64,000 nucleotides of DNA. It comes from Bacteroidota bacterium. Its GTDB lineage: Bacteria; Bacteroidota; Bacteroidia; Chitinophagales; Chitinophagaceae. The stretch covers positions 39,105 to 103,104 of the forward strand of contig VBAT01000008.1 of NCBI GenBank assembly GCA_005884665.1, given 5' to 3'. Position 1 is the stretch's first letter; each line of letters opens with the position of its first letter. The notes under the pieces were generated by a model that ran no database searches, was not told the origin of the DNA, and saw only the letters and a program-made list of their open reading frames with translations. The translations under genes and the position numbers were made by a program. Below are positions 16,842 through 54,945 of the stretch, piece after piece.

Positions 16842-17089
16842 TCTGAATCATCTTCACCAATCTCTTTCTTATTTTTGGGTAGTTGTCTCATCCGATGGCT
16901 ATCGGATTTGAATTTGCCCACTGAGGACCGCTGAGAATAGTCGGGGGCCGCAGGGAAAGACGATTCCGTGGCTCTCTCTCCTGTTGCCTTGGTGTCGCCA
17001 TGTCGAAGCAAGGCCGGCAAGGCACGATTTGTTTCTCCCTGTGGCTGTTCTGATTTTTCAAACAGGGACACTACATATTTTTGTATTTC

Positions 17090-41878: not shown

Positions 41879-42010
41879 TCAATAGACCAGGGATATACAT
41901 TATAAAAACGTGGCAACTCTTACCCATCGGGGCATAATAAATTAGATGGTTGCTTTCTTAAAGTTTTTCATTACTTAAATCTTTTAATAAGCGAAAGCTT
42001 TACCTTTGCG

Positions 42011-42110
42011 GCCGGCAGGTCTTACACGACCAGCTCCTGCTGAACCCTCCCAGGGCCGGAAGGCAGCAAGAGTAGGTGGTTGAGCGGTGCGATGTAATAA
42101 GCCTGCCTTT
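42011..42110 (+). ncRNA. ffs: Signal recognition particle RNA (small bacterial type, 4.5S-like)
   Basis: The domain IV motif CAGGGCCGGAAGGCAGCAAG has a GGAA tetraloop (compare E. coli CAGGUCCGGAAGGAAGCAGC). The closing helix is GGCAGGTCTTAC ... GTAATAAGCCTGCC, followed by T8. A TAccTTTG -7 box lies at 42001-42008. Confidence 0.8.
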
Positions 42111-42147
42111 TTTTTACTTTAAAAACTCCGCCACGGGAGATCTCTAT

Positions 42148-46100: not shown

Positions 46101-48797
46101 TTACAGGCTTTGCAGGCTTTCTTCTATTGCTTTGATCTTTGCTTCAGCATCGGCCTTTTTCTGCTTTTCAACTTCCACCACTTCCGGCTTTGCGTTTTGA
46201 ACAAAACGTTCATTACCTAACTTTTTCTCTACAGAAGCAAGAAATCCTTTTTGATAGTCCAGGTCTTTTATCAGCTGGTCTCTTTGCGAAGATGTATCCA
46301 TTAAGGCTGTAGCGGCAATAAAGAATTTATCCTTACCAACAACAACCGTTATGCTGTTGTTGATCGCTGCATCGGTAAAAGCAACCTCTGCATTTGCCTG
46401 TTTGACCAGTATGGATTCAATGGACTTATATTGTGCTGCATTGTCAGAAAGAATATGCAGTTGTATAGGGTCCCTTGGTTTTAGTTGCGCTTTGACCCTG
46501 GCATCGCGAATGGCTGTGATGACTTCTTTCAGGAGTGCTCCGAGATTGGTGATCCCTGGTTTTATGGATCCCGGTTGTGCAAGCTGTTTTACCGTGAGAT
46601 CGTCAGACCTTTCCTTTAATTGGTGATAGATCTCTTCAGTAATAAAGGGCATGAACGGATGCAGCAATTGCATCAGTTGTTCAAAGAAATCAGTCGTCTT
46701 TTCATAAACGCTTTTATCGATGGGTTGTTCAAAACCGGGTTTCACCCATTCAAGATACCAGCTACAGAAATCGTCCCAGATCAGGGAATAAATCGTTTTG
46801 AGAATTTCACTTAAGCGAAAGTCTTTGTACAACCCATCGATCTCTGTTTTGGCCTCATTCAGCCGGTTTTCAAACCAGTCGACTGCAAAGTTTGCATCCG
46901 CCTGCCCACCGGTAGCAGCTTGTCGGCCTTCCCACATTTTTACGAGCTTCAAGGCATTCCATATCTTATTATTGAAATGTGACCCCTGTTCATTGCTTGC
47001 TTCATCCCATAGCAGGTCATTACCAGCAGGTGAGGAGATCATGATGCCGAACCGCACGGCGTCGGCGCCGTATTTATCGATCAAAGCGAGAAGATCGGGC
47101 GAGTTGCCGAGACTCTTGCTCATTTTTCTTCCCTGCTTATCGCGAACAATACCTGTAAAATAAACGTCGTTGAATGGTTTTTCGCCCTGGTACTCGAAAC
47201 CAGCCATGATCATCCTGGCTACCCAGAAAAAAATAATCTCGGGAGCTGTCACTAATGTATTGGTGGGATAATAGTATTTGAGATCCGGGTTTCCGGGATT
47301 ACTGTATCCATCAAAGACTTCGAACGGCCAGAGCCAACTGGAAAACCAGGTGTCGAGGCAGTCTTCGTCTTGTTTGAGATCGGCAATAGTCAACGGTGTC
47401 CCGATAGCCATCGGCACGTGAATGGAGTCTCCTGATTGACCATCGACCTCCCGATGGCTATCGGGAGACGATTCATGAACAAGTAGATTGAAGGCTTCTT
47501 CCTTTGTAGCTGCGACTGCAAAGCGCCCGTCCGGCGTAAACCATGCGGGAATGCGATGTCCCCACCAAAGCTGGCGACTGATGCACCAGTCCTTTATGTT
47601 CTCCATCCAGTGGCGATAGAGATTCTTGAACTTTACGGGATAGAACTTGATATCATCGTCCACCACGGCTTTCAGGGCCGGACCGGATATTTTCTTCATA
47701 TCCACCCACCATTGAAGACTTAGACGAGGCTCTACTACTGCATCTGTTCTTTCGCTATAGCCGACCTCGCTGGTATAATCTTCGGTTTTTACGATATACC
47801 CTTTGGCATCGAGCTCCGCAACGATCTTTTTTCTCGCTTCGAAGCGATCTTCGCCGATATAGATCTGCGCTTCTTTGTTCAGCGTTCCATCTTCATTAAA
47901 TATGTCCACGATCTCGAGCTTATGTTTTTGTCCAAGCTGATAGTCGTTCATATCATGAGCAGGTGTGATCTTCAATGCACCGGTCCCGAAATCCATCGTT
48001 ACATATTCGTCGGTAATAATGGGAATGCGGCGGTTAATAAGTGGTACAAAGGCAAACCTGCCATGAAGATGCTTGTATCTCTCGTCGGCGGGATGTACAC
48101 AAATCGCTGTGTCTCCCATAATAGTTTCGGGTCTGACAGTTGCAATGGTAATAAACTCTTCCGAAGGACGGGAGGATCTATCTTCCAGGAAGTATTTTAA
48201 ATAATATAATTTCTGCTGTGTTTCTTTCCGTATCACTTCTTCATCACTCAACGCAGTTTTCGCCTTCGCATCCCAGTTGATCATTCTCTTACCTCTGTAG
48301 ATATATCCTTTGTTATAGAGGTCTATGAATACATCGATGACGGCCTGGTAGTAGTCTGGGTCCATGGTGAAGGTGGTCCTCTCCCAATCGGCGCTGCATC
48401 CCAGTTTCCTTAATTGCTGGAGAATGATACCACCATATTTTTCTTTCCATTCCCAGGCATATTTTAAAAACTCATCGCGGCTGAGGGAAGACTTGCTTAT
48501 TCCTCTTTCCCGGAGCATCTGCACCACTTTTGCCTCGGTGGCTATGGAAGCATGATCGGTTCCTGGCACCCAACAGGCATTCTTTCCCTGCATTCTTGCG
48601 CGGCGGATCAAAATATCCTGGATGCTGTTGTTGAGACAATGGCCCATGTGTAACACACCCGTAACGTTGGGAGGGGGCATCACGATGGTATAGGGTTCCC
48701 GTCCGTCTGGCTGGCTGTGGAAATATTTTTTGGCTAACCAGTGCTGGTACCATTTCTGCTCGGCCGCACTATGCTCGAAATTCTTTGAAAGGCTCAT
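46101..48797 (-). CDS. valS: Valine--tRNA ligase
   Basis: PPPNVTGVLHMGHCLN (HIGH), KMSKSLGN, an editing domain and a C-terminal coiled coil. Contains an atypical insert, SSPDSHREVDGQSGDSIHVPMAIG (see findings). Confidence 0.95.
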   Translation of the reverse strand: MSLSKNFEHSAAEQKWYQHWLAKKYFHSQPDGREPYTIVMPPPNVTGVLHMGHCLNNSIQDILIRRARMQGKNACWVPGTDHASIATEAKVVQMLRERGISKSSLSRDEFLKYAWEWKEKYGGIILQQLRKLGCSADWERTTFTMDPDYYQAVIDVFIDLYNKGYIYRGKRMINWDAKAKTALSDEEVIRKETQQKLYYLKYFLEDRSSRPSEEFITIATVRPETIMGDTAICVHPADERYKHLHGRFAFVPLINRRIPIITDEYVTMDFGTGALKITPAHDMNDYQLGQKHKLEIVDIFNEDGTLNKEAQIYIGEDRFEARKKIVAELDAKGYIVKTEDYTSEVGYSERTDAVVEPRLSLQWWVDMKKISGPALKAVVDDDIKFYPVKFKNLYRHWMENIKDWCISRQLWWGHRIPAWFTPDGRFAVAATKEEAFNLLVHESSPDSHREVDGQSGDSIHVPMAIGTPLTIADLKQDEDCLDTWFSSWLWPFEVFDGYSNPGNPDLKYYYPTNTLVTAPEIIFFWVARMIMAGFEYQGEKPFNDVYFTGIVRDKQGRKMSKSLGNSPDLLALIDKYGADAVRFGIMISSPAGNDLLWDEASNEQGSHFNNKIWNALKLVKMWEGRQAATGGQADANFAVDWFENRLNEAKTEIDGLYKDFRLSEILKTIYSLIWDDFCSWYLEWVKPGFEQPIDKSVYEKTTDFFEQLMQLLHPFMPFITEEIYHQLKERSDDLTVKQLAQPGSIKPGITNLGALLKEVITAIRDARVKAQLKPRDPIQLHILSDNAAQYKSIESILVKQANAEVAFTDAAINNSITVVVGKDKFFIAATALMDTSSQRDQLIKDLDYQKGFLASVEKKLGNERFVQNAKPEVVEVEKQKKADAEAKIKAIEESLQSL

Positions 48798-51957: not shown

Positions 51958-52176
51958 ATGGTGTCCCGATGGCAATCGGGAGGTGAGAAGTCTTCGCGAA
52001 CAGTTTTGTGTCACTTCGTGTCTTGGTGTCTTAATGGTTCCCTCTTTGCGCCTCCTATATTTCCCTATCCTTTCTTTTATCTTACAATTCATCAGAAACT
52101 TTTCGCAATCCATTCCTCTGTTGTTATTAAATGTTTTTTCTGCGTTGCATATTCGCCACGCAATTAAAAACACTGT

Positions 52177-54293: not shown

Positions 54294-54324
54294 TTTGGCT
54301 AAAAGCTATTCAGGACTATCTTTG
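54294..54324 (+). promoter_or_regulatory. Bacteroidota-type sigma-A promoter for the tRNA array
   Basis: TTTG (54294-54297), a 19-nt spacer, then TAtcTTTG (54317-54324). It lies about 38 nt upstream of tRNA-Val. Confidence 0.6.
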
Positions 54325-54361: not shown

Positions 54362-54436
54362 GGGAGTTTAGCTCAGCTGGTTCAGAGCATCTGCCTTACA
54401 AGCAGAGGGTCGGCGGTTCGATCCCGTCAACTCCCA
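54362..54436 (+). tRNA. tRNA-Val (anticodon TAC)
   Basis: GGGAGTT-TA-GCTC-AGCTGGTTCA-GAGC-A-TCTGC-CTTACAA-GCAGA-GGGTC-GGCGG-TTCGATC-CCGTC-AACTCCC-A. Canonical cloverleaf; CCA not encoded. Confidence 0.92.
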
Positions 54437-54473
54437 CAGTGAAAGGTTTCAGTTAATACTGGAACCTTTTTTT

Positions 54474-54549
54474 TGGAGTTTAGCTCAGCGGTTCAGAGCA
54501 TCCCGACTACCAGTCGGGAGGGTCGGCGGTTCGATCCCGTCAACTCCCA
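54474..54549 (+). tRNA. Non-canonical tRNA-like gene, copy L1 (Val-type body, 19-nt anticodon arm with ACC in the loop)
   Basis: T-GGAGTT-TA-GCTC-AGCGGTTCA-GAGC-A-TCCCGA-CTACCAG-TCGGGA-GGGTC-GGCGG-TTCGATC-CCGTC-AACTCCC-A. It has a U1/C72 mismatch and a 6-bp anticodon stem. Confidence 0.5.
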
Positions 54550-54586
54550 CAGTGAAAGGTTTCAGTTAATACTGGAACCTTTTTTT

Positions 54587-54662
54587 TGGAGTTTAGCTCA
54601 GCGGTTCAGAGCATCCCGACTACCAGTCGGGAGAGTCGGCGGTTCGATCCCGTCAACTCCCA
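54587..54662 (+). tRNA. Non-canonical tRNA-like gene, copy L2
   Basis: Identical to L1 except for one G>A in the variable loop (gggagAgtc, ~54634). Confidence 0.5.
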
Positions 54663-54699
54663 CAGTGAAAGGTTTCAGTTAATACTGGAACCTTTTTTT

Positions 54700-54775
54700 T
54701 GGAGTTTAGCTCAGCGGTTCAGAGCATCCCGACTACCAGTCGGGAGGGTCGGCGGTTCGATCCCGTCAACTCCCA
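54700..54775 (+). tRNA. Non-canonical tRNA-like gene, copy L3
   Basis: Identical to L1. It is followed by a different trailer (cccaatccc...) and a diverged terminator hairpin. Confidence 0.5.
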
Positions 54776-54826
54776 CCCAATCCCAGCGAGGGTTTCAGCC
54801 AATGAAGCCCTTTTTGGTTTTACCCA

Positions 54827-54857
54827 TTTGCATACAATTTGCATACATTTGCATACA
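54827..54857 (+). promoter_or_regulatory. Three tandem TTTGCATACA boxes (10-11-bp phasing); overlapping TAnnTTTG promoter-like motifs
   Basis: tttgcataca occurs at 54827, 54838 and 54848. TAcaTTTG (-7-like) motifs are embedded. The boxes lie about 90 nt upstream of the 54946 gene. Confidence 0.45.
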
Positions 54858-54945
54858 AATACCTTTTTAGCATCATTTCTCCAACCGGATTTGCAGCATC
54901 ATTTTATCATACCTTCAGCCTGTATTAAAATTTATAGTCACCACC

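Follow-up and report, generated by a model that had tools for sequence, protein, structure and literature searches.

The closest described counterpart of the system reported here is SegB, a free-standing GIY-YIG homing endonuclease found in the transfer RNA (tRNA) gene clusters of T-even phages (PMC2330249, PMC13096335). The enzyme cleaves tRNA genes internally, at the motif RAWTSGAAC, and by way of homologous recombination causes tRNA genes and segB to be amplified together in tandem (PMC13096335). Here we analyse a 64,000-nucleotide stretch of a Chitinophagaceae genome assembled from a soil metagenome and labelled 'Bacteroidetes bacterium' (Bacteroidota; GenBank assembly GCA_005884665.1, contig VBAT01000008.1, positions 39,105 to 103,104 of the forward strand; hereafter the window), in which a tRNA-Val gene is followed by three tRNA-like units. 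We consider it likely that these units are members, lacking an open reading frame (ORF), of a tRNA-Val(UAC)-derived repeat family that accompanies a minimal UPF0213-like GIY-YIG nuclease in Bacteroidota, and that they are relics of a selfish cassette. The repeat family is apparently widespread in Bacteroidota and undescribed, and we found no publication describing an association between such a nuclease and tRNA-Val-like repeats. A free-standing GIY-YIG nuclease tied to tRNA genes is of a known kind; the tRNA-Val-flanked family appears to be new. The window's own copies are ordinary relics, and the interest lies in the family that they reveal.

As with SegB, the GIY-YIG gene sits among tRNA sequences and shows presence/absence polymorphism, and the tandem arrays resemble segmental amplification by homologous recombination, a process that would also account for them here. 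By our own comparison, the T-loop DNA GGTTCGAAC agrees with the SegB motif at 8 of 9 positions. Whereas SegB is phage-borne, is about 220 aa long and has a DNA-binding domain, the element here is chromosomal, has no viral matches and encodes a bare UPF0213-type catalytic domain of 80-120 aa; and whereas the tRNAs amplified with SegB are functional, the copies here are systematically disabled and the ORF overlaps the tRNA-like module. In size and conserved residues the protein matches the UPF0213/YhbQ/BH0048 family (PDB 1zg2; Slx1-like branch), for which we found no report of the tRNA-like 3′ module or tandem arrays seen here. The family would extend to bacterial chromosomes the SegB finding of nuclease-driven amplification of tRNA segments.

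The array in the window comprises the following features.

54294-54324, plus strand: promoter-like motif of the Bacteroidota type (TTTG at 54294-54297, 19 nt, then TAtcTTTG, TATCTTTG, at 54317-54324), read from the sequence
54362-54436, plus strand: canonical tRNA-Val(UAC), the resident functional gene (Rfam tRNA model RF00005, 69.7 bits; ARAGORN, Val(tac))
54437-54473, plus strand: terminator-like spacer A, hairpin AAAGGTTTCAG/CTGGAACCTTT and T-run, repeated with each unit at 54550-54586 and 54663-54699 (fold)
54474-54549, plus strand: tRNA-Val-like unit 1, ORF-less, U1 opposite C72, remodelled arm at 54501-54519 (Rfam tRNA, 44.1 bits)
54587-54662, plus strand: tRNA-Val-like unit 2, G>A in the variable loop at 54634, arm at 54614-54632 (Rfam tRNA, 43.8 bits)
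54700-54775, plus strand: tRNA-Val-like unit 3, arm at 54727-54745 (Rfam tRNA, 44.1 bits); in sister contigs this slot holds the GIY-YIG gene and a module with a UAA loop
54776-54816, plus strand: terminator B, unlike spacer A, with a hairpin at 54788-54812 and a T-run (fold and same-species comparison)

A preliminary description of this locus had recognized the canonical tRNA-Val and three near-identical units at a 113-bp period. ARAGORN and RF00005 agree on the former; RF00005, ARAGORN and Tandem Repeats Finder (period 113 bp, 3.7 copies, 96% matches) agree on the latter. Direct inspection likewise bears out that the T at position 1 of the units faces C72, that their D-loop is 1 nt shorter than that of tRNA-Val and that the G>A at 54634 is the only difference between units; the same variant of unit 2, reading GAG, recurs in same-species contigs L165, L167 and L168. 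The spacers are identical, as had been described, with a predicted hairpin of −16.1 kcal/mol (z −6.15) followed by T8. The one promoter-like motif lies upstream of the first gene alone and would serve as its promoter; the motif TATCTTTGC is likewise present upstream of tRNA-Val in loci L058 and L078. Terminator B flanks the array in all same-species alleles examined and is therefore probably the native tRNA-Val terminator. Over the 30-nt 3′ part, units 1-3 show 0, 1 and 0 mismatches to the neighbouring tRNA-Val. The GIY-YIG nuclease gene is absent from the whole 64-kb window.

The units depart from tRNA-Val most clearly in the anticodon arm. Its 19-nt sequence had been given correctly, but its fold had not: the arm, TCCCGACTACCAGTCGGGA, is a perfect palindrome whose minimum-free-energy fold has 8 bp and a 3-nt loop rather than 6 bp and a 7-nt loop. 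A scan of metagenomes for a Val-type D-arm and T-arm with an over-long arm between them identified at least 119 loci of the same design, mostly downstream of tRNA-Val(UAC). Nearly all listed loci share CAGAGCA-UCCCG…CGGGA-GGGUC-T-arm-…CUCCCA (as a search string, CAGAGCATCCCG N8-14 CGGGAGRGTC), and the window units carry the CAGAGCA, the UCCCG…CGGGA hairpin, the GGGUC and the T-arm. Among the matches listed, to which the counts of units and pairs below also refer, the arm is a helix of 7-8 bp with a loop of 3-5 nt. In the 63 unique arms the outer pairs 1-5 (UCCCG/CGGGA) are essentially invariant, and compensatory changes, which the preliminary description had proposed looking for, occur further in: pair 6 is AU in 44 arms, GC in 7, CG in 5 and UA in 5; pair 7 is CG in 39, UA in 14, AU in 2 and GC in 2; and pair 8 is UA in 37 and CG in 5. 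In an alignment of 45 sequences the share of paired cells is 95.9%, whereas shuffled alignments reach 82% and slid controls do not exceed 58%. The remodelled arm is not an anticodon loop.

The family is tied to one chromosomal setting. Where a canonical tRNA-Val(UAC) lies within 2.5 kb, the unit is downstream of it on the same strand in 73 of 73 pairs, as in the window, and the 30-nt 3′ part equals that of the local tRNA-Val in 51 of these pairs, while differing between loci. The same layout is found at four further loci, from several assemblies of a Bacteroidales metagenome-assembled genome (MAG) lineage, a Crocinitomicaceae MAG and an assembly that bears the name Oscillatoria amoena; the contig from this last assembly is, we suspect, a Bacteroidota contaminant. 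At the window's array and at ten related loci, tRNA is the only Rfam family with a match.

Of the 160 units listed, 97 are linked to an ORF, their 5′ half being replaced by a gene for a GIY-YIG protein of 80-120 aa, and 33 or more have no ORF but a tRNA-like 5′ half; ORF-less units make up about a quarter of the family. The full cassette, which is directly observed, runs in the order terminator, nuclease ORF, D-arm 3′ strand, hairpin UCCCG…CGGGA, variable loop, T-arm and 3′ acceptor strand, terminator; the part from the variable loop onward is usually identical to the local tRNA-Val, and cassettes stand in tandem after a real tRNA-Val gene. Reading GGU UCA GAG CAU CCC GAC in frame from upstream yields the conserved protein end …KSRKxIExLIxGSEHPD, so that the D-arm and the hairpin's 5′ strand supply the codons for the tail …GSEHPD. 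The ORF is closed by a stop codon that sits in the loop of the hairpin; in some loci this codon is instead the TAG at U8-A9-G10 of the tRNA-like module. The first 1-3 acceptor pairs are usually missing, both in ORF-less units and in units where the ORF stops at this TAG.

The protein is a bare GIY-YIG catalytic domain (PF01541, E 1e-13) whose closest solved structure is UPF0213 protein BH0048 (PDB 1zg2, E 4e-6); NCBIfam, PADLOC and PHROGs hold nothing specific for it. The 331 homologues are named from Chitinophagaceae, Agriterribacter, Sphingobacteriales, Crocinitomicaceae and Bacteroidales. Catalytic residues are kept in the 106 homologues of 78-95 aa, most of which end …SEHPD(L), indicating that the family as a whole is marked by fusion with the tRNA-like module. 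No promoter-like motif is seen in the short stretch from the terminator T-run to the nuclease ATG, suggesting that nuclease expression probably depends on transcripts that start at the tRNA promoter and read through the terminator. In Bacteroidota, small GIY-YIG proteins of the UPF0213 type are found in a fixed setting, that of tandem tRNA-Val cassettes with the end of the ORF inside a remodelled tRNA, which provides a concrete, testable hypothesis for this family.

Alleles from the same species, recognized by an identical 205-aa downstream protein (contigs L165-L169), show strain-level polymorphism directly. Whereas the window has three units with ACC as the central triplet of the arm, L169 has tRNA-Val and one such unit, and L165 and L166 have two units each. 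L167 and L168, from separate samples, contain an ACC unit, a different terminator, an 85-aa GIY-YIG ORF and the same final terminator; the ORF occupies the last slot and ends CCC GAC TAA inside the arm TCCCGACTAACAGTCGGGA. Alleles with and without the ORF are related by a clean replacement bounded on the left by …CTCCCAC and on the right by GTTCAGAGCA. The earlier suggestion of recent amplification or of an amplified integration target came close to the evidence, which is of tRNA-Val-derived repeats that vary between strains and flank a mobile nuclease cassette. An identical tRNA-Val(UAC), spacer and ACC-unit array also occurs in L078 (2493-3301) in another upstream context, where a tRNA-Val(GAC) and a small ORF precede it. 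L078 is a second locus or a related organism, and the finding points to the array having been transferred or converted as a whole.

These observations can be combined in a model in which the tRNA-derived flanks would act as portable homology for cassette insertion at tRNA-Val loci, and arrays would grow or shrink by unequal homologous recombination, possibly stimulated by nuclease-made breaks by analogy with phage SegB. The nuclease would be expressed by read-through of the tRNA terminator, and the array in the window may be a nuclease-less remnant that was recently amplified.

Several points weigh against this model. The 85-aa protein is a bare catalytic domain without a DNA-binding domain, and its nuclease activity is putative. 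As the 64-kb window has no nuclease gene, amplification here need not have involved the nuclease. Copy-number differences between short-read assemblies may in part reflect assembly collapse, the 113-bp period being shorter than the apparent k of 141 (taken from contig names), although the presence/absence polymorphism of the ORF cannot be explained in this way. Hairpin covariation implies selection or a mutational bias for pairing, for which a homology arm alone is no explanation; an RNA-level role is possible, and the pairing could reflect a DNA target, a role of the RNA or palindrome correction by template switching. Truncated arm-bearing copies upstream of tRNA-Val in L145, L176 and L112 are not predicted by the simple form of the model. 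There, 3-4 tandem partial units of ~75-82 bp lie between the tRNA-Val promoter and the gene (L145 1376-1690, L176 750-975, L112 ~915-1140), with an intact tRNA-Val 5′ half, the remodelled arm and GGGTCGG, and without a proper T-arm and 3′ strand.

The hairpin is not confined to the anticodon arm. Extra UCCCGA…UCGGGA hairpins are inserted into tRNA-like units at the T-loop, at the D-loop or ahead of position 10 (L053 845-863; L070 1898-1916 and 2282-2300; L172 1293-1310; L069 347-364; L089 65-82; L075 ~2209; L104 2015-2029), and the hairpin looks more like a module that recurs than like one change in an ancestor. The palindrome CCGAT-N4-ATCGG, which has the stem of the remodelled arm, has four copies in the window against 0.04 expected.

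47401-47414 and 47451-47464: CCGAT-N4-ATCGG, both copies within the valyl-tRNA synthetase (ValRS) ORF at 46101-48797, minus strand
16892-16905: CCGAT-N4-ATCGG
51966-51979: CCGAT-N4-ATCGG

In ValRS the two copies are translated as PMAIG and PDSHR, each of which is missing from some ValRS proteins of at least 90% identity (P0008; P0009 and P0010), so that they look like in-frame palindromic insertions polymorphic among close relatives. A tentative extension, which we hold to be improbable but worth stating, is that the UCCCGA…UCGGGA hairpin is a recognition or cleavage substrate of the nuclease (as single-stranded DNA or a cruciform) or its partner RNA, the two forming a selfish palindrome-plus-nuclease system, a GIY-YIG counterpart of the repetitive extragenic palindromes and their associated tyrosine transposases (REP/RAYT). 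In this system tRNA-Val would serve as a safe harbour, and palindromes of 15-19 nt would be seeded into T-loops, D-loops and even coding genes such as ValRS. It would share with REP/RAYT and the Rickettsia palindromic elements a short conserved palindrome at many sites, even in frame in a protein gene (ValRS), and an associated nuclease family. It would differ from them in the small size of the palindromes (15-19 nt) and in having a GIY-YIG protein rather than an HUH/Y1 transposase, and the link between nuclease and palindrome is a proposed one.

The preliminary description had raised an unusual decoder or suppressor tRNA; the corresponding reading is that the units are functional non-canonical tRNAs, either a Gly(ACC) decoder or a suppressor or frameshift tRNA with a 7- or 9-nt loop. 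ARAGORN does label all three 'Gly acc', and in the RF00005 scoring that had been proposed they reach 43.8-44.1 bits, above the gathering score of 29 for a cloverleaf, while the neighbouring tRNA-Val scores 25 bits higher. Phages do have real tRNA-Gly(ACC) genes whose arm reads GA-CUACCAG-UC (L001, L003, L004), and the Prokaryotic Genome Annotation Pipeline seems to have annotated four tRNA features here, judged solely from the locus-tag gap from E6H09_02735 to 02760. An open 7-nt anticodon loop on a 5-bp stem is nevertheless replaced by the closed 8-bp hairpin with its 3-nt loop, in which the equivalents of positions 32:38 and 33:37 are Watson-Crick pairs that covary across the family. The triplet is free to vary: the 19-nt arms contain at least 31 different 7-nt loops, with central triplets that include ACC, UUC, GAA, AAA, UAU, CUU and UAA, and among the loci listed ACC is confined to the window's species and L078. 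Glycine identity requires G1:C72, C2:G71, G3:C70, U73, C35 and C36, and valine identity A35, C36 and A73. By these textbook rules, the units have neither a full 7-bp acceptor stem, 1:72 being U·C, nor a consistent isotype, A73 and G2:C71 contradicting the bacterial Gly set and C35 the Val set. A scan of 185,579 species genomes (GTDB species representatives) for the ACC arm plus T-loop gave 15 matches, all by chance and none a tRNA, so a Val-bodied ACC unit is not a conserved gene. Decoding by these units is thus largely refuted already, and we regard it as very improbable. With the anticodon loop zipped into an 8-bp helix (7-8 bp across the family) and the first acceptor pair gone (the first 1-3 pairs in the family), the three units are non-decoding, doubly disabled copies of the neighbouring tRNA-Val gene. 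In the same-species nuclease gene the loop reads UAA, one base from the UAC of the window, and by this comparison the window's ACC is best read as a UAA-to-UAC variant of a stop-codon loop, an accident of a former stop codon.

A role for the tRNA-like RNA itself is a more serious alternative, though still an unlikely one: the RNA might bind, inhibit or guide the nuclease, in the manner of an antitoxin or decoy, or form a module that processes or stabilizes the nuclease mRNA at its 3′ end, with ORF-less units as orphan copies. Type III toxin-antitoxin systems and the MALAT1/mascRNA pair offer precedents. Pairing in the hairpin is kept even where the encoded amino acid changes (GAC, GAU, GCC, GGC), the hairpin recurs in T-loops and D-loops, and each unit has its own terminator. 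Units are promoterless and lie behind terminators, however; most ORF-linked units have no acceptor stem, which makes processing by RNase P or Z unlikely; and template-switching 'correction' of palindromes can mimic covariation without any RNA function. For the tRNA mimic or decoy suggested in the preliminary description, nothing in our analysis provides support. Neutral, decaying tandem duplications of tRNA-Val, unrelated to any element, would fit the youth implied by three near-identical copies and the absence of the units from GTDB species representatives. We give this reading little credence, because free decay would not reproduce a remodelled arm that is shared, with its five invariant outer pairs, by more than 100 loci in several Bacteroidota orders and goes with a single protein family. 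About as improbable as decoding is the reading of the units as scars left when an integrase inserted an element into tRNA-Val. The 3′ ends of tRNA genes are classic integration sites, and the repeats, like attachment (att)-site duplications, lie downstream of an intact tRNA gene and repeat its 3′ part in direct orientation. Unlike att-site duplications, the units are tiny (113-420 bp), include 5′ halves or D-arms rather than the 3′ segment alone and have an arm remodelled relative to that of the target. No integrase is seen at or near the arrays, there being no recombinase family match among the array-flanking window ORFs scanned or among the gene calls of related loci, and the arm pattern has 0 matches in the 2.9 million viral contigs of IMG/VR. 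Of these readings, we continue to favour relics of a nuclease-associated tRNA-Val repeat family.

Removing the false 'exotic decoder' has a practical side, as tRNA finders will call units of this family tRNA-Gly(ACC), tRNA-Stop(tta), tRNA-Lys(ctt) and so on in many Bacteroidota genomes; such units should be masked as pseudo-tRNAs in annotation.

Apparently genuine tRNA-Gly(ACC) genes, with A34, are found in viral contigs L001 (1345-1417), L003 (7586-7657, minus strand) and L004 (11256-11327, minus strand). Their anticodon arm is canonical (5-bp stem, 7-nt loop), they have G1:C72, C2:G71, G3:C70 and U73, and UCC or GCC versions are present in sister phages. The exact arm of the window units occurs in the tRNA-Gly of L001, and GACUNCCAGUC is a common phage Gly arm. 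We considered a phage tRNA-Gly(ACC) as the source of the units and judge the likeness coincidental, because it is the UAA-loop module of the local nuclease cassette that gave rise to the window arm. Type III toxin-antitoxin and CRISPR-like readings of the locus were also rejected, no matching genes or architecture having been found. The proximity of the ValRS and Leu/Phe-tRNA-protein transferase genes to the array is a coincidence rather than a functional link, because other loci have unrelated neighbours.

Downstream of the array, an 11-bp sequence, ATTTGCATACA, is repeated in tandem three times at 54826-54858, ahead of the 205-aa gene; the repeat has just two copies in L167 and L168, which come from the same species. 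Elsewhere in the window, the Rfam model 'Bacteroidales small SRP' (signal recognition particle RNA) matches 42006-42112 at 87 bits; as the MAG appears to be related to Chitinophagaceae, the model reaches further than its name implies.
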